64,000 nucleotides of DNA. Origin: a virus (taxonomy: Duplodnaviria > Caudoviricetes). The translations under genes and the position numbers were made by a program. The notes beneath the pieces are model-generated. The model was given only the letters and a program-made list of their open reading frames with translations, was not told the origin of the DNA and did not search any database. Each line of letters begins with the position of its first letter. Position 1 is the stretch's first letter. Shown here piece by piece: positions 38,029 through 48,900 of the stretch. The DNA lies in IMG/VR virus record IMGVR_UViG_3300025647_000027, positions 5,936 to 69,935 of that record, one strand, 5' to 3'.

Positions 38029-40296
38029 ATGAGTAACAGATTTTCACAAACTACAACAGCAGGATTTAAGGGTCTTTCCTTAGATGAGATAATGGCTATT
38101 CCATTAGCTAAACAAACTCGTCAGGATGCTTCATTGGCGGCAACTGATGAATTACAAGCGCTAGAAGCTAAAAGACTTGAGAGTGATGCTCCTGTCGTTG
38201 ATGCAGAATTAGAAAGAATTAGAAAGGAATCAGAACAGATTTCAAAAGACTTAATGGAAAGAGGTGTAGATAGAAACTTATCTAATAAACTTCGTAGTCT
38301 TAGATCATCTCAAAAGAAATCCTTTGGTGCTTCTGGAGTTGTTGGTCAATCTGAAGCTAACTATAAAGCGGCTCAGTCTTATATTAATAATCTTGCAACT
38401 AAGAAAGAACAACAAGCTGGATGGTCACCTCAACAAGCTAAAATATGGGCTACCTCACAGGTTAGTAATTTTGGCAGTTCATTTGATGAATTAGGTAATT
38501 TTAGACAGTTTCAAGGAGCAGGTATGTCTCAAAAGGTAGAGAGTAATGATTGGATTAATAAAAATCTAAAACTTATTGCTTCAGATACTAATCAAGAGAT
38601 GATGAAATATGCTGGTAATTTAGATCAATTCAATGAAGCATATGCCTCTGGTCTAGTTACAGAGAAAGACTTCAATAAGATTATGTCTTCCTTAACCATT
38701 ATGGCAGCTAATGATCCGGATTTACAAGCATCTCTAAAACAACAACAATTCTTTGACCCCAATGCAGGTGATCCAAAAAATATTGGATCATGGTCTGTAA
38801 AATACAGAGAAGATGGTACAAAGACTGACGTATTTACACCTGGTAATGAATTTGGTAGACAATTGTATGGCGCCGCATTAGGAGTTAAATCAATGGATAA
38901 GACATATAAGTTTCATTTTCAAACTGATATTGCTGCTAAAGCTTTATTTGAAGCTGGCCTTGAAGAAAAAGAAGCTAATGCATTAGTTAGAGCTGCTGAT
39001 GGTGTATTGAATACTATTACTCCTGATAATATTGATCAGATTAGAGAAAATACAGATTTAGCTTTAAAAGAACTTGATAGACAAACTGGTGCTTTAGCTG
39101 CTAACTGGACTCCAGAGAGAATAAAGGCTAATCCTGATGCGTATGCTTTAGCTCAAAAGAGTCTTAATGATTCTAAAGTTAAGTATTTTAATCTCCAGAA
39201 TAGAATTAAGAGTATAGAAAAAGAAACATTTAAAGAGCTTACTCCTGTTGAACAGGAAGGAAAAGTTTTATATGATAAATTAAGAGAGGGTATTCCAGGT
39301 TATGAACAAGCTAAAAATCAAGATGAGGTTATAACATCTTTAACTGATGCTATTAGAAAATTACCTGGCGGAAAAGAAGTTGTTGGAGAAAGTGGTACTT
39401 TAAGTGAGAGCGGAACAGGAAGTGATGAAATGGAGAATTTCTTAACTTCTAAATATCTAGAACTTAAAGGTGAGAAAGTTAACAAAAATTCAAGAGCAAA
39501 TAGAAGTATATTTAACTGGGTTGGTAGTGAAGACTTAGCTTATGATGATGGTATTGTAGATAAAATGAAAGATGGAGCAAGGGCCCTTAAAGATAAATCT
39601 AAAAAATATCTTGAGCAAAACCCTTATTCTGAATCGTATACTGAATTCGGAGCATTAAACTCTGGTAAGTATTCTAGTAGAATTGGTGCTATTAACCAAA
39701 ATCTAACAGATAATTTCCAAGGAGCTGGATACTCAGAAGCTTATACTGGTATGTCAATAAACCAATATGTTCAAGAGAATTATCCAACTGACCCTTCTTC
39801 AACTGAAGCTAAATATAACTTTGAAATAAGAGTTACGGATGGACTAGATGCCATGGGTTACCCAATTGAACACTTAGTTATTAAGGACAGAAATGGTTCT
39901 GTAATGGAAGTTAAAAGTGTAACAAGAGGTGAGGCTGGTAGAAAAGAACAAAGAGAAACTGGTATTGAGTTGATGAAATCTACTGATCCTACTCTACAAA
40001 AGAAAGGTAAACAAATGCTTGCTAATGATACTATGATGCCTATGATTAAACAAAATGGTGGACTTAGAACAGGAGCTGTTGAAGGTCAGTTTACAGGAGA
40101 ATACAGTAAAGTTGATGTAGATGGAAAGGAACTTCCAATAGTTTGGACTAAAGAAGAAATAGGTGGTCAAGAAATATGGAGAGTAAACGTTGGAGGATTT
40201 AAATCAAGAGAAATACACGGCGAAACAGATATGGCTTCATATCTTGCCGATGAATTATTAGCAGAAATAGATAAATATGGTACAGGAGACAATTAA
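38029..40296 (+). CDS. Cargo/ejection protein
   Basis: 755 aa helical protein two genes upstream of the virion RNAP. Confidence 0.7.
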   Translation: MSNRFSQTTTAGFKGLSLDEIMAIPLAKQTRQDASLAATDELQALEAKRLESDAPVVDAELERIRKESEQISKDLMERGVDRNLSNKLRSLRSSQKKSFGASGVVGQSEANYKAAQSYINNLATKKEQQAGWSPQQAKIWATSQVSNFGSSFDELGNFRQFQGAGMSQKVESNDWINKNLKLIASDTNQEMMKYAGNLDQFNEAYASGLVTEKDFNKIMSSLTIMAANDPDLQASLKQQQFFDPNAGDPKNIGSWSVKYREDGTKTDVFTPGNEFGRQLYGAALGVKSMDKTYKFHFQTDIAAKALFEAGLEEKEANALVRAADGVLNTITPDNIDQIRENTDLALKELDRQTGALAANWTPERIKANPDAYALAQKSLNDSKVKYFNLQNRIKSIEKETFKELTPVEQEGKVLYDKLREGIPGYEQAKNQDEVITSLTDAIRKLPGGKEVVGESGTLSESGTGSDEMENFLTSKYLELKGEKVNKNSRANRSIFNWVGSEDLAYDDGIVDKMKDGARALKDKSKKYLEQNPYSESYTEFGALNSGKYSSRIGAINQNLTDNFQGAGYSEAYTGMSINQYVQENYPTDPSSTEAKYNFEIRVTDGLDAMGYPIEHLVIKDRNGSVMEVKSVTRGEAGRKEQRETGIELMKSTDPTLQKKGKQMLANDTMMPMIKQNGGLRTGAVEGQFTGEYSKVDVDGKELPIVWTKEEIGGQEIWRVNVGGFKSREIHGETDMASYLADELLAEIDKYGTGDN

Positions 40297-43200
40297 TGAT
40301 CCTTTAGACTTAAGCATTGTAGAGAACGCATCAACAGATGAGACGTTAATGCAAAAAGATCCTCAAGAGGATACTAAGCCTAAGGCTAAAGCTAAGTTTG
40401 CTAGTGTTGACCCTACTGAAGAAGTTGTAGCTGATGACCCTAATAACGGTAAAGCTAAATTTTCAGGTGGAGGCCCACAGGTTGTTCAAGATAAAATGTA
40501 TAAAGGATTAGATATCGAAGATTATACAGACTATCTTGGATCTAACATCTTTATGCCTACTGGTGGCGTTGACGCTTTAAATAAGCAACGCGCTATGAAT
40601 CAATCCGGTTGGGAGCAAGCAGGTAATATGCTTGGTCAAGCTGTTGTTGGTGAAATTGTAGGTGGTACTATTGAAGGTTTAGGTTACATCTTAGATGTTG
40701 GTAGCGCACTGGATTATATGACTGGTAATGAAAAGGACTGGGGTAACTTTATGACTGAAGCTGGTAAAGGATTAAGAACATGGAGTCAAGATGCAATGGC
40801 TATACATACTGTTAATCCAGGTAAATTTGATCCGGGAGATTCAGGATGGTGGTTTAGTAACGGTGTTAGTGTAGCTTCTACATTAAGCATGCTTATCCCT
40901 TCTATGGCTGCAACCAAAGCATTAGGCTTCTTGGGTAAGGGAGCAAGTAAGCTTGGTGGTAAATTCTCTAAGATACTTGATGTTGCAGGAAACATGGGTA
41001 AACAAGCTACATGGATGACAGAAGGTATTTCTCAAGCAATAGTATCTAGACATATAGAAAATTCTATGGAAGCTAGTGGCACATTCGAAAGTGCAAAAGC
41101 TGATTACTTAACAAGAACAAATAAAGAAACAGGATTACCATTTACTGAAGAAGAAGCAACTAAATTAGCTTCTGAGGCCGCTGCTTCTAACTACAATAAA
41201 GGCTGGGCCATGTTACTTCAAGATATACCCCAGTATTTAGCATTAGGTAAAATCTTCAATCCTCACACAGGTAGAATGGAGAATGCTTTATCTAAGGCTT
41301 CTCAAAAAGGTAAACAATTAAAATTAAAACCATGGCAACAAAAAGTTGGTAGTGGAATTGGAACATTCTTGTCTGAAGGTTTTGAAGAATCTTACCAATA
41401 TTATATTGCAGAACAAGGTAAAGCACTTGCTGATCTAAATGCTGGATTAATCACAAGAGATAAGTATAATGAGATCATGTCTGACGCCATTGGCTCTGAC
41501 GAGATGATGACTTCTGCATTCTTTGGTGGATTAGGTGGTAATTTATTTCAAATGGCAGGTAAGGGCTTAAATGAGCTCGGAAAAGGAAAGAAAAGAAGAG
41601 AATTCGAAAGCAATTACGAGGAAACTTATAGGTCTACACTTAATGATCGTGCTAAGAATTTCATGTCTATGCAACAAAGGCTAGCTGATGCTGACAACAA
41701 CGATAATGTTGAGGCCAGAGAGATGGTATTAGATGAAATGATGTTGATGATGACTACTGATGCACTGCACCGTGGTAAATTTGATCAACATATTGAATCT
41801 CTTCAAGGTATAGCTAACATGACTAAAGAAGAAGCTAAAGCTTTAGAACAACAAGGTGGTGGTGAATTCAATTTAGAATTAGCTAAGAAGAGTATTCCTG
41901 AAATAATCAAAAAGTCTGAAGAGATGAGATTAGATTATTTGAAGTTCTCTAACAAATACGAAGGTAATATTGCGGCTAAAATGGCCCAAAACAATTACAG
42001 AACTAAAAGATTTGTTGAAAACTCAAAGAAGATGGATGAAAAAATCCAATCTACTACTTATTCTGTTCCGAATATTAATGCTATGTCTACAACTCAACTT
42101 AATAAAGTTGAAGGAGTAATTAAGTTAAGAGCTTTAGCTGAAATGAATCAAGCATTTAAAGATCAACTTAAATCAGGTAAAGTAAGTGAGTTAAGAAAAC
42201 CACATATTGAAAAAATCATAAAAGAAAATGAGGCTAGAATATCTAAGCTAACTAAACAATATGATGCTGAAAATAAAGATGATCCAAGAGATGCTGACAA
42301 AAAGAGAGAAGATTCTAGGATAGCGCAAGGTTTCACAAAAGATATCACTGATGAGCTTGTTCAAGCTAATATGGTTAAGGAGCGTAATAACGCAGAGATA
42401 ATGCTTAATCAATTAGAGAATGATGCTATTCGTAGTGAAAGTTATAGAAATGGCCTTAAAAAAGAAGCTTTAAAAGAAAAGGTTAACTCTAAAATAGAGA
42501 ATGAAGAGCAAGGTGAGGCTATTAAGAAGGAAATTGAAGATGCTCCATTCTTAACTAAGGATGAAAAAGCTGCTGAACTTGCTACTGTTAATGAGAATAT
42601 AGAGGAATTAGCTAATGAGGCTGCTGTTGCTCAAGAATATAAGAATGATGAGGCTAGAGAAGCTGAGAAGTTAGCTGCTGTTAATGAAGCTAAGAAAGAT
42701 ACTAAGACTATAACCAATGCTAACAATGCTAAGGTTAATGATAACGTAGAAGATGAGTTCGCTGAGGAGCAAACTACTGTCTCTAAGATTACTAAAAGCA
42801 AAGAGAAGTCACAAGATAGAGCTATTAATACTAAAGCGTATAAGAACATAAAGGTTCCTATGTATGCTAATCTTAATGGTCCTGGTTGGAAAGACTGGGT
42901 GTTTAATGGTAAGGACAAAACTGGAATCAAGGATGGCAAACCAGTCATTTTAGATTTTGTAATAGGTGATCCTGGTGGAAAATATTCGCAATTAGCCCAA
43001 CAGGCAATTAATATTTACAACAGAGCTAAGGCTAATCCTAAAAACAAGCTTACATCTGAGGAAAAAGATATTTTATTTAATCATCTTCCTATAAAGATTC
43101 AACTTACTGAAGAGATTTGGTCATATATACCTGCATTCTCTCCATCAAATACATTCTTTAAAACTAATGAATTGCCAAAAAGAGAGGCTATCATTAGACA

Positions 43201-45970
43201 GATGTTTAAAGGAAACACTAAAACTCAAGTTACTTATCAATTTGGAGGAAACTTACATGTTGAAGAAACTGAAGATAACACTGTACCTGAAAACAATATA
43301 ATGGATTTCCCATTTATTGATGGTAATATGGGTAAAGTAGACTTAATGGTCACTAATGAAAATGGTACTTTAGTTAAGGCTAGTGATAAAACAGATCATC
43401 CTGACTTTGAAGGATTACAAATAGATGTATTAAGAACACAAGATGACAAAGGAAATCCAGTGCCTTACAAAGGTGGTGTATTTTTAAATGTTCCTAAGGC
43501 TAATGGAGATCCATTTCCTTTAAAACTTAACCTAAGACGTCCAACAACAGTAGAAGCTACATTTGTTGCAGACTTACTTATAGCTGTTATTACCAAGAAG
43601 CTTGGTAAAGAGGCTAGATTAAGTGAACATCCTGAGTTATTTAAAAGATTTAAAGAAGATCATCCTTCTGAATTTGCTGTATTAGGTAAAGATGCTAAAA
43701 CAATGGATGTTGCTAAATTATTTGTACATATGACAGCTGAAACAGCAGGTAAAGAAACTCATTTACACTTAACAGGTGAATGGATTCATTATGGTACAGA
43801 TATGAAAGCTGCTGTTACTCCTAAAAATGTAGTTGACAATAGAGATGCTCTTATTGGATTTATACAAGACTTCAAGAGACGTCAACTTAATCTTAAACAA
43901 TGGAATGATGCTGTAATAGGTCCTAAGTATAGAGAAATGATGACTAATGGTGTAATGTCTACTGACGCTGTTGTTGGTACTGAGAAGCCATTATTTAATG
44001 AGAATAAAACTCTTGGCCGTGACAATGGATTACCTCCATTTAAGTTTGATATAGGATTTGCTGTGCCTGAAGATACTCCCGAAGTTACTGAAGTGAGCCC
44101 TAAGGAAGCAACTAAGACTAACAAAGATATTGATTCTAGACAAGCAGCTTCTGATAATGCTGGTGTTGTTGATGAAAGGGAAAAAGGCTTTGCCGGCGTA
44201 TTCTTTGATAAAAATAGAAAAAGAATTCCAGTATACGGTAAAAATGCTGACATGGTTCGTAAGCTAATAAAGGAAAGATATGATGCTGAAAGATTATCTC
44301 AACCTGCTCAAAAAGCAGCTACTGTTATTAAGGAAGTTCCTACTCAAGAAATAACAATAGATCCATTAAGTAAATCAATAGATGCACAAAAAGCTGAAAT
44401 AGAAAGAAGAAGACAAGAAGAGTTAAAAGATACAGGGGCTACAGACAACAATCTAACAAATGGAAGTAAATGGAGAAAAGTCGAAGTCAAAGAAAATGGC
44501 AAAATCATCCCATTTAATAACTTTACTGTTAAACTAGATGAAGCTATTAAGCTAGCATCTGTAATGGATATAAATAAAGATTTTGGTAAAGATGATAAAT
44601 TTAAAGGGTATGGGTGGAAAGCATACATTGCATTAGGGAAAGAGTTAGATAAGTTAGGTTATAGTTTTATAGCTTCTAAAAATTTATCAGATGGTGCTAT
44701 TAAAACTTGGGATAAGTTAGTTGAAAAAGGATATGCTTATAAAAGAGGAGATAGAAGTTATAAATTTCAAAATAAAGAAAATTCTTCTAATAAATACAAT
44801 AAATATTTTGATACATTAAAAGAAGCTGCTTTTAACCAATTAAATAGTATGTTTGGTAATATACCGTACAGTTCTATTGAAGATTATAAATCTGTTATTG
44901 ATGTTGAAAAAGACAATAATAAAATGGCAGAAGGTTTAAAAAGAACCCTTTCTGCTTATGATGCTAAAGATTATAATATTATAGAGGAATATGGATATAA
45001 AAATATAATAGACGATATATCAAATAATGACCTTTCATTTGAAAAAAGTAACAAAAATGATAATCTAAATTTAGAAGTAGAGTTGATTGAAGATAAAAGA
45101 TTTGATAAAATCAACGCTAAATATGATGCTGAATTAGCTGCTTTAGAAAATAATGAAAAAGCTAATATAGAAAAAAGAAGACAAGAAGAGAGGATAGTAC
45201 ACACAGATATAGATAAAAAGGGGAGAAAACATACTTATTTTACAAAAACTACAGAAAAAGACGGGTTAACTAAAACAAAGTTTACTTTCAATAGAAGTGA
45301 TAAAGATTCTACACAAAGAAACACTGCATCTGTACCTACAGATATTGCTTTAGGGGATAAATATGTAATACCAAAAGAAACAAAAAATGCTGATGGAAGT
45401 ATGTCTGACCAAATTCCTGAAGACACTATTGTACATTCTGTTTTAGAAATAAGAGAAGGAGATGGTAAAATAGGAGCTACTGTAATGTTTCAAGGTAAAA
45501 ATGACCCCACTATAAGGTGGAAAGGAGATATTGTTTTAGAAATCAATGCTGAATATGATGCAGAAATAGCTGCTTTAGGTGATACTACTGTTGAAGATTC
45601 TTCAACTGATCCTGTTTCTAATGGTATTTGGAAAAAGTTTATTGACAAAGGCGATGTATCTAAAATTCAATTAAATAAGATTGCTAAAAAAATTGCTTCA
45701 AATGATTTGCTTTCTTCAAGAGAAAACGCTATCTTTACAGGCAAGACTGCTGAGATAAATGAAATTCTTGTAGATTTACGCGCTTCAGAAGAAGTTAAAG
45801 CTAGAAATAAAATGGCACAAAGAGAATTAAAAGCTAATAAGAACGTAGAAGTAGAGTCTTCTGAAGAAGCAAAAGATGCTGAGAAGATTGATAAAAAACA
45901 AAACACAAAAGAAATAGATCCTAACGTAATTAAAACTGAAGAACAGGGAGACTGGGATTGTATAATATAA
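40277..45970 (+). CDS. Giant cargo/ejection protein with C-terminal polyvalent cassettes
   Basis: 1897 aa; TM-like glycine-rich N-terminal segments, EGFEESYQY motif, coiled coils, bracketed inserts at 44.1-45.6 kb. Confidence 0.8.
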   Translation: MVQETINDPLDLSIVENASTDETLMQKDPQEDTKPKAKAKFASVDPTEEVVADDPNNGKAKFSGGGPQVVQDKMYKGLDIEDYTDYLGSNIFMPTGGVDALNKQRAMNQSGWEQAGNMLGQAVVGEIVGGTIEGLGYILDVGSALDYMTGNEKDWGNFMTEAGKGLRTWSQDAMAIHTVNPGKFDPGDSGWWFSNGVSVASTLSMLIPSMAATKALGFLGKGASKLGGKFSKILDVAGNMGKQATWMTEGISQAIVSRHIENSMEASGTFESAKADYLTRTNKETGLPFTEEEATKLASEAAASNYNKGWAMLLQDIPQYLALGKIFNPHTGRMENALSKASQKGKQLKLKPWQQKVGSGIGTFLSEGFEESYQYYIAEQGKALADLNAGLITRDKYNEIMSDAIGSDEMMTSAFFGGLGGNLFQMAGKGLNELGKGKKRREFESNYEETYRSTLNDRAKNFMSMQQRLADADNNDNVEAREMVLDEMMLMMTTDALHRGKFDQHIESLQGIANMTKEEAKALEQQGGGEFNLELAKKSIPEIIKKSEEMRLDYLKFSNKYEGNIAAKMAQNNYRTKRFVENSKKMDEKIQSTTYSVPNINAMSTTQLNKVEGVIKLRALAEMNQAFKDQLKSGKVSELRKPHIEKIIKENEARISKLTKQYDAENKDDPRDADKKREDSRIAQGFTKDITDELVQANMVKERNNAEIMLNQLENDAIRSESYRNGLKKEALKEKVNSKIENEEQGEAIKKEIEDAPFLTKDEKAAELATVNENIEELANEAAVAQEYKNDEAREAEKLAAVNEAKKDTKTITNANNAKVNDNVEDEFAEEQTTVSKITKSKEKSQDRAINTKAYKNIKVPMYANLNGPGWKDWVFNGKDKTGIKDGKPVILDFVIGDPGGKYSQLAQQAINIYNRAKANPKNKLTSEEKDILFNHLPIKIQLTEEIWSYIPAFSPSNTFFKTNELPKREAIIRQMFKGNTKTQVTYQFGGNLHVEETEDNTVPENNIMDFPFIDGNMGKVDLMVTNENGTLVKASDKTDHPDFEGLQIDVLRTQDDKGNPVPYKGGVFLNVPKANGDPFPLKLNLRRPTTVEATFVADLLIAVITKKLGKEARLSEHPELFKRFKEDHPSEFAVLGKDAKTMDVAKLFVHMTAETAGKETHLHLTGEWIHYGTDMKAAVTPKNVVDNRDALIGFIQDFKRRQLNLKQWNDAVIGPKYREMMTNGVMSTDAVVGTEKPLFNENKTLGRDNGLPPFKFDIGFAVPEDTPEVTEVSPKEATKTNKDIDSRQAASDNAGVVDEREKGFAGVFFDKNRKRIPVYGKNADMVRKLIKERYDAERLSQPAQKAATVIKEVPTQEITIDPLSKSIDAQKAEIERRRQEELKDTGATDNNLTNGSKWRKVEVKENGKIIPFNNFTVKLDEAIKLASVMDINKDFGKDDKFKGYGWKAYIALGKELDKLGYSFIASKNLSDGAIKTWDKLVEKGYAYKRGDRSYKFQNKENSSNKYNKYFDTLKEAAFNQLNSMFGNIPYSSIEDYKSVIDVEKDNNKMAEGLKRTLSAYDAKDYNIIEEYGYKNIIDDISNNDLSFEKSNKNDNLNLEVELIEDKRFDKINAKYDAELAALENNEKANIEKRRQEERIVHTDIDKKGRKHTYFTKTTEKDGLTKTKFTFNRSDKDSTQRNTASVPTDIALGDKYVIPKETKNADGSMSDQIPEDTIVHSVLEIREGDGKIGATVMFQGKNDPTIRWKGDIVLEINAEYDAEIAALGDTTVEDSSTDPVSNGIWKKFIDKGDVSKIQLNKIAKKIASNDLLSSRENAIFTGKTAEINEILVDLRASEEVKARNKMAQRELKANKNVEVESSEEAKDAEKIDKKQNTKEIDPNVIKTEEQGDWDCII
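44390..45577 (+). repeat. Paired bracket repeats KAxIExRRQEE / INAxYDAExAAL
   Basis: Left brackets at 44390-44425 and 45158-45193, right brackets at 45110-45145 and 45542-45577; similar at the DNA level too. Confidence 0.85.
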
Positions 45971-45995
45971 TAAATTTTAAAACGCTATAAAGCAA

Positions 45996-48900
45996 ATGGG
46001 AAAGAATTCGAATTGTATAGGCGCCATGAAGTTTGAGGAAAAGCTAGTTACCATTTTGGGAACTCAAGAACTAGCTAATGCAGAAGCACGAAGAATTGCT
46101 TCTGATTCATTCAAACAAGTATTCGGCGATTGGGAAAACAATAAAGACGCTAAATGGACTGACAAACAAGGTGCATTAAGGCAAGATGATAATGGTTATC
46201 CTAGATTATTTAAATCTGGTAACCAATTCTACTATAAACTTAAGAATGGCAAGAAAGACTTCTTAAACAAGATTAAGTTTCCAGAAATAGATCCAGACGA
46301 CGTATTTGAAATCACTAATCAACTTAGATATGAGCTATTCTCAACTAAGGAGGGATTTGATTTTAATAACATTGAGAACATAAAAGGTCTCAAGATAGCT
46401 GAGTCTATTCAATCTAGCATTGATGCTTATAGAGCTGAAAATGTAGGAGATCCTGATGCACAAATGCGTGCAGATCTTATTGAAAAATATAAGGAAGACT
46501 TTGTTATTGAGGTAAGAACTCAAATTGAAGACATGGGTCTTACATCAAGTAAGCGTATTAAAGCAGGTGCTAGAAAGGATCAAATTGTTGACTTAACTGA
46601 TGAGAATGGAAATCCAGAAGGGGAAATGGCTGAAGAAGACAAATCCACTGGAATGAATTTCGCCGAAAGCTTTACAAAGAATTCTAAAGACACTGCGTCT
46701 GTAAATGTAAAGTTATTATTATCCACTGTATTAGATACTAAAAGAGAGCTTAGGAAAAATCCTGACGGAACTCCGTATGTAAATGAGAACGGTAAAAATG
46801 AAATGGTTATTTCTACTGTTCCTGGTAGGTTTTTAGGTAAGCCACAATTTGTTGAATTTGATGACGTATGGACTACCTTGGAGCCAATGCTAGCTGACTT
46901 AGTTAACTTTAACCTAGGAGGAGATGTTCAGGATGTATTTGACTTAATGGTTGAGAAGCTTGAGGGCTTAAAACTAGTTAAGCCATGGACAGAAGGATTA
47001 GTAGACAGACTAAAAGAATTAAATACTTCAGAGAAGATTGGTGAAAGAAATAAAATTACAGAATTTTTCCAAGCTTTCTCCAAAGCTCAACTTGATTATT
47101 ATGTAACTGAAGTTAACGGTCGTAATATAAAAGTAATCAATGCTTCTTCTACAAACTCGAGATCTAGTAAGCTTAAAGCTGAATGGGGCCGTAATTTTAG
47201 AAAGAAATTCTTAACCAGCAAGGGTAAGATGAATAAAGCTGTCGATGTTGAACAAATATCTGACATGATTACTGAGTCAAAGAAAAAGTTTATAAGCCAA
47301 GTAGGCACAAGAGGAACAACAGCCTCTAAAATTAAAAGTATCAGTGAGAATCTTCCTATTCTAATGGGAGCAATGAATGCGCTTGGTATCAACGTTAACA
47401 ACCTTGATATGCGTAACTTTATTCTTCAGGTTAGTGATCCGGAAAAAAGATATGGTGAAGTAAAAGCTTTATATGAAGGTATGGAAAGAACCATGGCTAT
47501 CATAAAAGATGATAAAGCTCCATTTGTTGTAGCTGGTGAATTTAAAAATCCATTTGATGATCAATTGGTATTAGGTAGATTAGCTACTGCAAGAGGATTG
47601 AGCGCTATTCAATTATCTGAGAATACAATTGTTGGTAATGAAGGTAAGACATATTGGACCTATTCTTCATTAAGTTATTTACATAACAAGCTTAATGCCT
47701 GGAAACAGCAAGCTGGTGTAGATGATACTATGGATATACAAGCTTTAGCTAGCTTAACTTATAACAAGAATTCTAGATGGTTGAAATACTTATTAGCTGC
47801 TGATATTGTTAATGACAGTGAGCGCGAAGCTAAATCATTAGAAAGAATTCAGGATGTTCAAATAGGCTTGTCGAGCTCTATGAAATCCAAAAATAAGAAT
47901 GACGGTGTTGATAATACTAAGATAACAATTGCTGATGCTATTAATGATAGTATGGTAAAAATTCTTGGTAAGAAAGCTTCTGCTCAAAAGTCATTATTTC
48001 CTACTATTGTTCCGGCTGATAAATCCCGTAAAATGGATCTTGCAGGTTTCGAAATGTTTGAAACAGGTATCGTATATACTAATGGTAAAGGAACAGAGGT
48101 TGATGATGCTACATCTGATATCTTTATAGATTACTTTGAAGATGAATTCAACAGGATGGCTGAGGCAGCTGATGAAATAGATAATCTTCCTGATTCAGAA
48201 AAGATAGAGCACTATCATACTAAGAGTATGAATGCGCTTCAGTCTCAATTGTTTCCAGAATTCTCACCTGCTGAAGCTTCTAAGGAAGTTAAAGCTATCT
48301 TATATGATAAGAACCGTCCTAAAAAATCTACAATTTCTGGATTATCTAAAACTCAGAAAGAGGCTTTAAGACCATTTGTTGTACAAGCTATCAAGGATAG
48401 AATGAAAGAAACTCTTCAGGAGTTAAGAAAAAATAAAATTATAGAAGTTGATCCAAAAGAAAAGGGTGGATTAAAGGCCCTTACTATTGATAAATCTTTA
48501 ATGGCTTCATATGAGTCTCAAAGTTCACCAGTGCATACAATGGTTGGTGATTATGTTGTTAATGGACTTATTTCTACTATTGAATATACCAAGTTATTTT
48601 CTGGTGATCCTGCTTATTATAAAAATCAAAGTGATTTGATTAAAAGGATTCCTGCTACCTATACTGATGGATTGCAATTAAGACTTAGTGAGAATGATCA
48701 CAAGTATTTTAATCAAGCAACAGTTAATGGTGTTGAGGTTGCTTCTAAGTATATGAAAGAGATAAGAGATTCTCTTACTGACAAGAAATTAATAGAAGCT
48801 TATAAAAATGTAAATACAACTGATGCTCAAGCATGGATAACTCCTCATAGATGGAAGTTTCTTAAAGAGAGATTAGGCCAATGGGGTGCTCAGCATGAGA

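Follow-up and report, generated by a model that had tools for sequence, protein, structure and literature searches.

How do two unrelated protein segments come to stand one after the other, each between the same pair of short peptides, within a single open reading frame (ORF) of a phage genome? The question is raised by the gene of protein P0002, which lies on a 64,000-nucleotide (nt) stretch (hereafter the window) of the Caudoviricetes record IMGVR_UViG_3300025647_000027; the source record in IMG/VR comprises 69,935 bases, with an estimated completeness of 72%. A first-pass annotation, made from the letters of the window, had described the arrangement as an in-frame array in an ejected virion protein, with variable payloads between conserved brackets. 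Our analysis suggests an answer that we consider, as a whole, probable: P0002 appears by sequence to be a cargo-type virion protein of a crAss-like phage and a polyvalent protein, and its C-terminal part would carry two mobile in-frame cassettes bounded by hairpin-forming brackets. Each cassette would consist of an opening helix (EAKKADIERRRQEEL), a variable payload, and a closing helix (DKINAKYDAELAALE).

All of the motifs listed in the first-pass annotation are present at the positions given for them, in frame, within the one ORF (Table 1). The brackets are also alike as DNA, as had been claimed: the two opening copies (44388-44422 and 45156-45190) agree at 91% over 35 nt, and the two closing copies (45108-45146 and 45540-45578) at 90% over 39 nt. 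The payloads themselves are unrelated, with 3% identity in a forced alignment and no cross matches. The impression that they are richer in AT than the surrounding gene holds for payload A, set against a backbone guanine-plus-cytosine (GC) fraction of 0.354, but only slightly for payload B (0.316), which is similar in this respect to the conserved C-terminal tail (0.315). A decayed third unit, which had been proposed from NKDIDSRQ (44120-44143) to IKERYDAERL (44267-44296), did not hold up. The hidden Markov model (HMM) of the opening bracket finds no match there, the closing HMM scores -3.4 bits on the letters YDAE alone, the DNA copy is only 62% alike, and the stretch is constant in all close relatives of the backbone. 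No other bracket-bearing gene was found in the window; the cassette gene is its sole carrier.

Table 1. Coordinates of the cassettes, the gene that hosts them, and its neighbors, in window positions
Feature	Position	Strand	Basis or property
Cargo protein 1 homologue, 890 aa	33633-36305	+	PF25725, E 9.2e-23
Cassette-hosting gene P0002, virion cargo-type protein (probable), 1897 aa	40277-45970	+	ORF call and neighbors
Backbone residues 79-477 of P0002	40511-41707	+	homology to crAssphage 'RNAP associated protein fused to zincin protease'
Backbone residues 869-1243 of P0002	42881-44005	+	homology to Cellulophaga phage phi14:2 g067
Fixed backbone stretch with faint bracket likeness (the former 'decayed third unit')	44120-44296	+	
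Variable region without DNA homology to cassette-free relative L191	44341-45703	+	blastn
Opening bracket O1, KAEIERRRQEEL	44390-44425	+	opening HMM, 20.8 bits
Payload A, 228 aa, composite	44426-45109	+	GC 0.262; no cysteine
Closing bracket C1, INAKYDAELAAL	45110-45145	+	closing HMM, 32.7 bits
Inter-cassette linker ENNE, 4 aa	45146-45157	+	sequence
Opening bracket O2, KANIEKRRQEER	45158-45193	+	opening HMM, 12.9 bits
Payload B, 116 aa, predicted all-beta domain	45194-45541	+	AlphaFold2 (AF2) model
Closing bracket C2, INAEYDAEIAAL	45542-45577	+	closing HMM, 4.9 bits; degenerate copy
Conserved C-terminal tail ending ...EEQGDWDCII, 130 aa	45578-45967	+	kept in P0004-P0008, P0010, and P0016
Virion RNA polymerase (vRNAP), 3516 aa	45996-56546	+	6vr4_A, E 2.3e-224, residues 12-1404

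Brackets of this kind are widespread, and they occur largely as ordered pairs. A degenerate DNA pattern for KYDAELAAL was scanned over IMG/VR; it holds ~37 bits, and by our own arithmetic one or two chance matches are therefore expected, against at least 118 loci found. Among the matches listed, 118 of 119 lie in frame within long open frames, and the likeness extends beyond the searched motif, with INA before it and E after it, to the closing-bracket consensus xDKINAKYDAELAALE; the residue that follows ...AAL is E in 80 of 117 and otherwise K, G, N, D, or S (G after C2 of the window), and the opening consensus stands 33-280 aa upstream of most. A DNA scan of the same database for the opening bracket returned 109 matches. 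A closing bracket follows within 450 aa in 72 of them, the locus ends too soon in 11, 20 fall in an unrelated protein of 62-78 aa, and six lack a closing bracket by HMM, although at least one of these has a divergent one by eye. A closing partner is present for 72 of the 78 assessable opening matches in giant ORFs. Read as order strings of opening (O) and closing (C) HMM matches, 134 proteins gave OC in 90 cases, OCOC in five, C alone in 27, and none in six, the rest being five rarer strings. Further, a protein profile built from 14 minimal units and searched against 1.84 billion cluster representatives matched 490 clusters at E ≤ 0.001, of which 62 also pass E ≤ 1e-10. The matched proteins are mostly 1000-6700 aa long, with up to nine matched stretches in one of them (P0019). 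Tandem cassettes in other proteins are separated by linkers that in most cases measure 2-23 aa; many of these linkers are P-, T-, S-, and Q-rich. The first-pass expectations of brackets beyond this genome and of ordered pairing are thus borne out.

The carriers appear to be largely crAss-like. A homologue of the crAss-type vRNAP was found in eight of 10 sampled carrier records, the two misses being estimated as 31% and 82% complete. Prokaryote genomes (596 Gb) gave 41 pattern matches, of which ~5-7 are true brackets, all on low-GC contigs of metagenome-assembled genomes (MAGs). In IMG/VR, a scan with the backbone just upstream of the cassette site gave 14 pattern matches and 0 confirmed ones, and a scan with a 486-aa region gave two matches only, both at the level of the brackets. 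No model matching the brackets was found in Pfam, searched with P0002 and three giant carriers, or in PHROGs, searched with five proteins of the window.

Two other protein families surfaced in these scans. Most of the pattern matches in prokaryote genomes belong to a conserved protein of ~820-900 aa with SGEPGDKYDAELAALF, found in Dehalococcoidia and some Actinomycetota MAGs (L192-L231) and unrelated to the phage bracket. The 62-78-aa family, from small viral contigs (several of them whole records of 4.5-13.6 kb), has REDIERRRQEEL in common with the opening bracket; its members include L124, L128, L129, L131, L139, L145, L147, L148, L150, and L151. These small proteins have no closing bracket and are otherwise unrelated, and their likeness probably reflects charged helices that have converged by chance.

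The cassette site varies between close relatives. On the same backbone, P0005, P0010, and P0016 have no cassette at the site; P0004 (payload of ~47 aa), P0006 (~170 aa), and P0008 have one; and P0007, like the window, has two. The cassette-free locus L191 matches the window by blastn on either side of the site (38565-44340 with L191 1-5767, 86.3%; 45704-48000 with L191 5997-8296, 88.3%), and the gap between the two blocks measures 1363 nt in the window and 229 nt in L191. Payloads do differ at an orthologous site, then, a point that the first-pass annotation had proposed to check: 0, 1, or 2 cassettes are found on a backbone of 86-88% DNA identity.

Its companion question, whether the same payload occurs in distant phages, also has a positive answer. 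P0003, which has another backbone arrangement, holds payload B at 73% identity, internally and within the same brackets. Cassette pairs with homologous payloads, and with sequence available on both sides, number 102; in 90 of these both flanks are unrelated and in 11 one flank is, and payloads that are 94-99% identical are included among the pairs with unrelated flanks. In eight of eight locus pairs, the giant ORFs have substantial blastn homology (74-95%) in one stretch only, which runs from within the opening bracket to within the closing bracket or at most ~11 nt past it, with one extra short match in two of the pairs; in L043, for example, the homology spans 1558-2381 and the brackets lie at 1555-1602 and 2341-2388. 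Bracket DNA is also more alike than codon usage would lead one to expect: in a test uncorrected for phage relatedness, the same-codon fraction is 0.713 in the closing bracket against a predicted 0.501 ± 0.011, and 0.764 in the opening bracket against 0.546 ± 0.022. An exact run of at least 20 nt is common to a third of bracket pairs from different loci, and certain bracket positions have a fixed rare codon, such as ATC. The earlier proposal that brackets serve as homology arms for exchange agrees with where the DNA homology begins and ends; we infer that payloads are swapped by homologous recombination and not by a specialized enzyme.

Logan contigs from sequencing runs of other studies (X5, X7, and X11) provide an independent check. 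A contig of run X7 contains window positions 45156-45578, with five differences and a 3-nt insertion, between flanks unlike those of the window. A contig of run X11 contains the same second cassette (45156-45578), followed by letters that read NDKTDNFSK, as in P0003. The X5 contig follows the backbone (~96% alike) to 44430, continues with 134 other letters, and rejoins the window at 45540, an arrangement like that of P0004, in which O1 and C2 enclose a single short payload. A joint in run X4 (44425 to 45102) is covered by only 27 letters on one of its sides and derives from what is likely the source sample itself; it was not used as evidence. Also left out of the evidence were runs X6, X8-X10, and X12-X22, which contain small shares of the sequence words, and the parts of the stretch that X5, X7, and X11 leave uncovered.

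What the brackets might do in the protein is suggested by structure prediction. The AF2 model of a 55-aa minimal unit, made with a 14-row alignment, comprises a helix (2-20), a loop, and a second helix (28-54), with a mean predicted local distance difference test (pLDDT) score of 85.6 and a predicted template modeling (pTM) score of 0.66. Its look-alikes in the PDB are antiparallel two-helix hairpins (TMq up to 0.69-0.83), among them the CHMP4B hairpin, Nodamura B2, the Gfh1 coiled coil, and an RNA polymerase subunit chain; none of the E-values is significant, as is expected because the fold is so small. These models support a bracket pair that folds, in the minimal unit, as an antiparallel alpha-hairpin. 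A complex prediction for the two 35-aa bracket stretches of cassette 1 (score 0.11, mark 0.34) counts neither way.

Taken with the exchange data, the hairpin suggests how such a system might operate. The two bracket helices would zip together and hold the payload at the tip, a geometry that even large payloads would presumably leave intact. The ends of the module would lie side by side, and it could therefore be inserted into flexible stretches of any host protein without disturbing the neighboring parts; cassettes would be strung in tandem through short linkers. During co-infection, recombination within the brackets would swap, add, or remove payloads in frame, the brackets being natural crossover points because they are the only DNA common to otherwise unrelated carrier genes. 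Carried by the cargo protein, the payloads would enter the virion and then, presumably, the host, where we suppose that they act once the cassette protein has been ejected.

The range of domains held in this way seems to be broad. We extracted 321 cassettes with 282 distinct payloads, whose length (the distance between brackets) is 12-330 aa, with a median of 73; the 213 payloads of at least 35 aa form 129 blastp clusters, 87 of them singletons. The label 'effector' is an assumption, because most payloads have no recognizable function. Some payloads do carry recognizable domains. In P0112, an ART-PolyVal domain (PF18760, E 4.6e-12) occupies residues 692-801, exactly between an opening bracket at 659-674 and a closing bracket at 807-822; P0008 has an FtsK-gamma domain at the site orthologous to the window cassettes; and P0018 gives a weak match to PP2C_2. 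Domains of the polyvalent class were not found by Pfam in the window payloads, and in other carriers they are represented by ART-PolyVal, FtsK_gamma, Peptidase_M78, and the weak PP2C_2. PHROGs, searched with 65 payloads, returned three families with one member each.

Neither payload of the window matches a Pfam family, and payload A has no match in PHROGs. Payload A is composite: relatives of its N-terminal half occur in L087, L165, and P0018, and those of its C-terminal half in P0017, mostly outside brackets, although the homologue in L087 overlaps an opening-bracket match. The ESM Atlas offers a weak lead to Acetyltransf_1 (rank 7, score 0.91, in 27% of cluster members), and by sequence the N-terminal half is possibly GNAT-like, with the C-terminal half as a second module. 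Payload B, for which the ESM Atlas gave no lead, has relatives in P0003, P0009, and P0011-P0015; it is modeled with 8-9 strands at a pLDDT of 80-92, and a Foldseek search with the cassette 2 model found no match at E ≤ 0.001 in PDB or BFVD. Elsewhere, the first cassette of L037 holds a bracketed payload of 246 aa with a zincin-like HEFIH motif, which recurs at 91-95% DNA identity between unrelated flanks in L043, L179, and L133 and is, by its motif, a candidate delivered metallopeptidase.

The reading of P0002 as cargo draws on its neighborhood and homology. Upstream, the cargo protein 1 homologue, which also matches PhicrAss001 gp45 (7qog_M, E 2.2e-13), is separated from the cassette gene by two ORFs; the vRNAP gene is the next ORF directly 3' of it. 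In tblastn comparisons, residues 79-477 of P0002 match the crAssphage RNAP-associated protein at ~26% identity (E 1e-19 to 5e-19), and residues 869-1243 match the 'virion structural protein' g067 of phi14:2 at 23% identity (E 3e-12), these labels being annotations as written in the database records. A search of P0002 against the PDB by sequence gave no match. Like the members of the Crassvirales cargo block, P0002 adjoins cargo protein 1 and the vRNAP and has homology to virion-annotated proteins. In PhicrAss001, the article text of Bayfield et al. (2023, PMC10172136) reports the products of the block (gp45, gp46, gp47, gp49, and gp50) in virions and states that the authors expect ejection after partial unfolding. 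P0002 is, by this synteny with and homology to the crassvirus cargo block, a putative 'ejected virion protein', the label that the first-pass annotation had given to it.

Three further observations may be recorded. The start of the cassette gene overlaps the end of the preceding 755-aa ORF (38029-40296) by 20 nt (40277-40296), and translational coupling inside the cargo block is therefore suggested. The alignment of residues 12-1404 of the vRNAP is to the best stretch of the 2194-aa phi14:2 chain 6vr4_A, and ~2100 of its 3516 residues are uncharacterized. In L135, an opening bracket directly precedes sequence (...NREPLSDREKAIFSDKTGEINKI...) that resembles the C-terminal tail of the window protein (45578-45967); because of this tail-like sequence right after an opening bracket, the window tail may itself act as a module.

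Cargo proteins and payloads also have a low cysteine content in common. The 282 payloads contain one cysteine in 22,391 residues, and the frequency is 0.0003 in bracket-bearing ORFs, as against 0.0054 in other ORFs of the same loci; in the giant carrier proteins it is 0.0004. The proteins of the cargo block in the window have 0, 0, 0, 1, and 1 cysteines: none in the three cargo ORFs upstream of the cassette gene, one in P0002 (Cys1895; window 45961-45969, ...DWDCII, third from the end), and one in the vRNAP (Cys7; 46014-46016). As judged from composition, payloads and cargo proteins appear to be under a common low-cysteine constraint, which fits their traveling together. In 75 of 112 carrier proteins of at least 1000 aa (P0003-P0168), a cysteine also lies within the last six residues, for an expected share of 0.002; the terminal cysteine of carriers may be an anchoring, linking, or packaging signal.

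Other explanations of the brackets can be weighed against mobile cassettes. The main rival, which is compatible with our preferred explanation, holds that the hairpin is in the first place a functional domain (a packaging or capsid tag, a dock for a virion partner or for DNA, or an ejection signal) with a loop that tolerates insertions, exchange being a by-product. We regard this as possible but rather unlikely. The motifs are nearly invariant across backbones that are otherwise dissimilar, the opening helix has a conserved RRR, and almost every carrier is a giant cargo-type protein from a phage that encodes a vRNAP. Further, 18 of the 109 listed opening-to-closing pairs have only 18-30 aa between the helices; on this account the hairpin would be kept for its own sake, because near-empty units are common. 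A functional hairpin leaves unexplained, however, why DNA homology starts and stops in the brackets of unrelated genes and why copies multiply as they do in P0019, and the close relatives P0005, P0010, and P0016 manage without any copy. Another idea is that a phage or host protease cuts at the brackets or adjoining linkers and frees the payloads after assembly or injection. A helical hairpin is, however, a poor protease substrate, the residue after ...AAL varies (G after C2 of the window), and P0002 has no HExxH motif and no peptidase family match in Pfam. The idea is improbable in our view, even though the annotation of the crAssphage protein homologous to the backbone names a fusion to a zincin protease, HExxH occurs in 46 of 162 bracket-bearing proteins, short linkers, often P/T/S/Q-rich, separate the cassettes, and autoproteolytic release of domains has been proposed for polyvalent proteins (Iyer et al., 2017, PMC5512222). 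Two specific candidates were set aside: a cleavage motif of T4 type (L-x-E) or phiKZ type at ...AALE, since the residue after AAL varies, and a zincin in P0002, which lacks HExxH.

A different kind of doubt concerns the mobility itself, which would be an artifact if assemblers had joined different phages at the short bracket repeats. Exact runs of bracket DNA between genes do exist (median 16 nt, 90th percentile 27-30, maximum 47), the X4 Logan contigs break at or near brackets, and many short contigs consist of brackets only. Most such runs are, however, shorter than the final k that common assemblers mostly use at their customary settings. The cassette-free form recurs, in P0005 on two contigs and in L191; the short-payload O1-C2 form is found both in P0004, on a 98-kb contig, and in the X5 contig of another study; and cassette 2 lies inside unbranched X7 and X11 contigs from two further studies. 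Payload copies differ across contexts by 1-26%, which is what separate lineages, rather than mis-joined reads of one population, should give. Chimeras at bracket repeats are unlikely, and that they should account for the mobility as a whole is very much so. We give still less credence to a local tandem duplication whose copies then diverged in this gene alone, without transfer between genomes. It would account for adjacent units with 90-91% identical bracket DNA, but it is contradicted by payloads that are unrelated to each other, by relatives that hold other payloads at the site, by cassette 2 in P0003 and other foreign contexts, and by the cassette pairs with unrelated flanks.

Several observations weigh against mobile hairpin-bounded cassettes as proposed here. 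The antiparallel helical stalk of the first-pass annotation is predicted for the minimal unit, but in the AF2 model of the window's cassette 2 the opening helix has a pLDDT of 46-55 and the closing helix drops from 86 to 57; because these helices are modeled with low confidence, support for the hairpin is limited to the bare unit. Pairing is imperfect: of the 27 unpaired closing brackets in locus ORFs, seven lie near a 5' end, an opening bracket is present but weak for another seven, and no opening bracket is recognized by HMM for 13; although some of these 13 are degenerate by eye, ~6-7 look truly unpaired. Payload modules also exist without brackets (the halves of payload A in L165, P0018, and P0017; payload B in P0015), and brackets are dispensable for the presence of a module, because modules are found without them. 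Pfam, searched with 65 payload representatives, found 10 families with one member each (Peptidase_M78, helix-turn-helix types, and others). The same-codon excess of the brackets was computed without correction for phage relatedness. Among the cultured phages of INPHARED, no bracket carriers were found at the sensitivity used (486-aa region and minimal unit), and the DNA of the cassette gene had no match there. Finally, bracket conservation appears to be far stricter than a passive scaffold needs, and the brackets may therefore have an additional role (binding, targeting, or processing, for instance).

A more ambitious form of the cassette explanation would make room for such a function: in environmental crAss-like phages, the brackets may constitute a system dedicated to in-frame domain cassettes, functionally the counterpart of an integron that works on protein segments, and may act as a folding adaptor, a DNA exchange site, and perhaps a packaging or ejection signal. 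We put this forward tentatively, as plausible but short of probable. If true, exchange would take place between co-infecting phages, possibly with a dedicated enzyme; the bracket profile would index a mostly unknown repertoire of injected domains; and the hairpin would be a natural scaffold for domain insertion.

The cassettes matter beyond this locus. crAss-like phages rank with the most abundant known viruses, and to our knowledge the domains that their giant virion proteins deliver into the host are largely unknown. The bracket motif pair provides a sequence handle with which hundreds of candidate delivered domains might be catalogued, given that a small sample already yields 129 clusters, most without a known family. 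It also suggests a testable model for how giant polyvalent proteins are built, by recombination bounded by translated adaptor helices, and an apparently context-independent natural scaffold for domain insertion with possible use in protein engineering. The low cysteine content of the payloads and the lone terminal cysteine of carriers hint, additionally, at rules for packaged and ejected proteins.

We found no description of the bracket peptides or of a bracket-cassette system in the literature, where the 'cassettes' of crAss phages are diversity-generating retroelement (DGR) cassettes, a different thing; the first-pass view that the system is uncharacterized is apparently correct. Parallels with better known systems can nonetheless be drawn. 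Integrons are platforms that gather promoterless whole-gene cassettes, which carry attC sites and are mobilized at attI by the IntI integrase. The likeness lies in a platform that collects interchangeable cassettes bounded by conserved sites; here, however, the cassettes are in-frame protein segments of one ORF, with borders that are translated and apparently structural, and the first-pass term 'integron-like' holds as an analogy only. In the antigenic variation of pilE/pilS and vlsE, short conserved in-frame stretches likewise flank variable segments and serve as homology for their replacement. Those systems vary one surface protein within a single genome from silent donor loci, whereas exchange here appears to link phage genomes and unrelated genes, and the payloads are whole unrelated domains. 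Inteins, too, are mobile in-frame insertions in host proteins, but they splice themselves out by means of a Hint domain with defined terminal residues. Such borders are absent from the payloads described here, which presumably stay in the protein, and no Hint family was found for the window payloads or among the 10 Pfam families of the 65 representatives.

The polymorphic toxins (CdiA/Rhs) are closer. Their delivery scaffold is constant, and the conserved border of the variable domain marks a recombinational cassette swap; the toxin is C-terminal, with one conserved border (a pre-toxin motif, e.g., VENN), an immunity gene, and downstream orphan cassettes. In both cases a conserved border marks the swap site and a constant scaffold carries high diversity. 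The cassettes of P0002 and its relatives differ in being internal, with two borders that are predicted to pair, with tandem arrangement possible, and with a conserved tail after them: in the window the 130-aa tail follows, such that no payload stands at the extreme C-terminus; in P0003 the cassette is mid-protein; and the gene downstream of the cassette gene is that of the vRNAP.

Closest of all are the systems to which P0002 itself would belong. The crassvirus cargo block has the same gene order, from cargo protein 1 through large cargo proteins to the vRNAP, and the article text (PMC10172136) makes no mention of bracketed variable inserts for gp45-gp50 of PhicrAss001, while its supplementary files might hold relevant lists. 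Polyvalent proteins, like P0002, are very large multi-domain products of mobile elements; they are thought to be co-delivered with DNA and are equipped with varied effector domains (Iyer et al., 2017, PMC5512222). Many unrelated domains are joined there in one polypeptide, as are the backbone regions, two unrelated payloads, and tail of P0002, and their signature ART-PolyVal domain is one of the bracketed payloads recovered here (P0112). In the article text of Iyer et al. (2017), these domains are strung together, the words 'linker' and 'shuffling' each occur 0 times, and recombinational variability is raised only as a possibility, from neighboring small ORFs; neither a two-helix bracket nor bracket-delimited exchange is described in that text, and the supplementary lists might hold the motif under another name. 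The bracket system can thus be regarded as extending the modular exchange of delivered multi-domain proteins, whether polyvalent or polymorphic, with the conserved two-helix borders as its new part.

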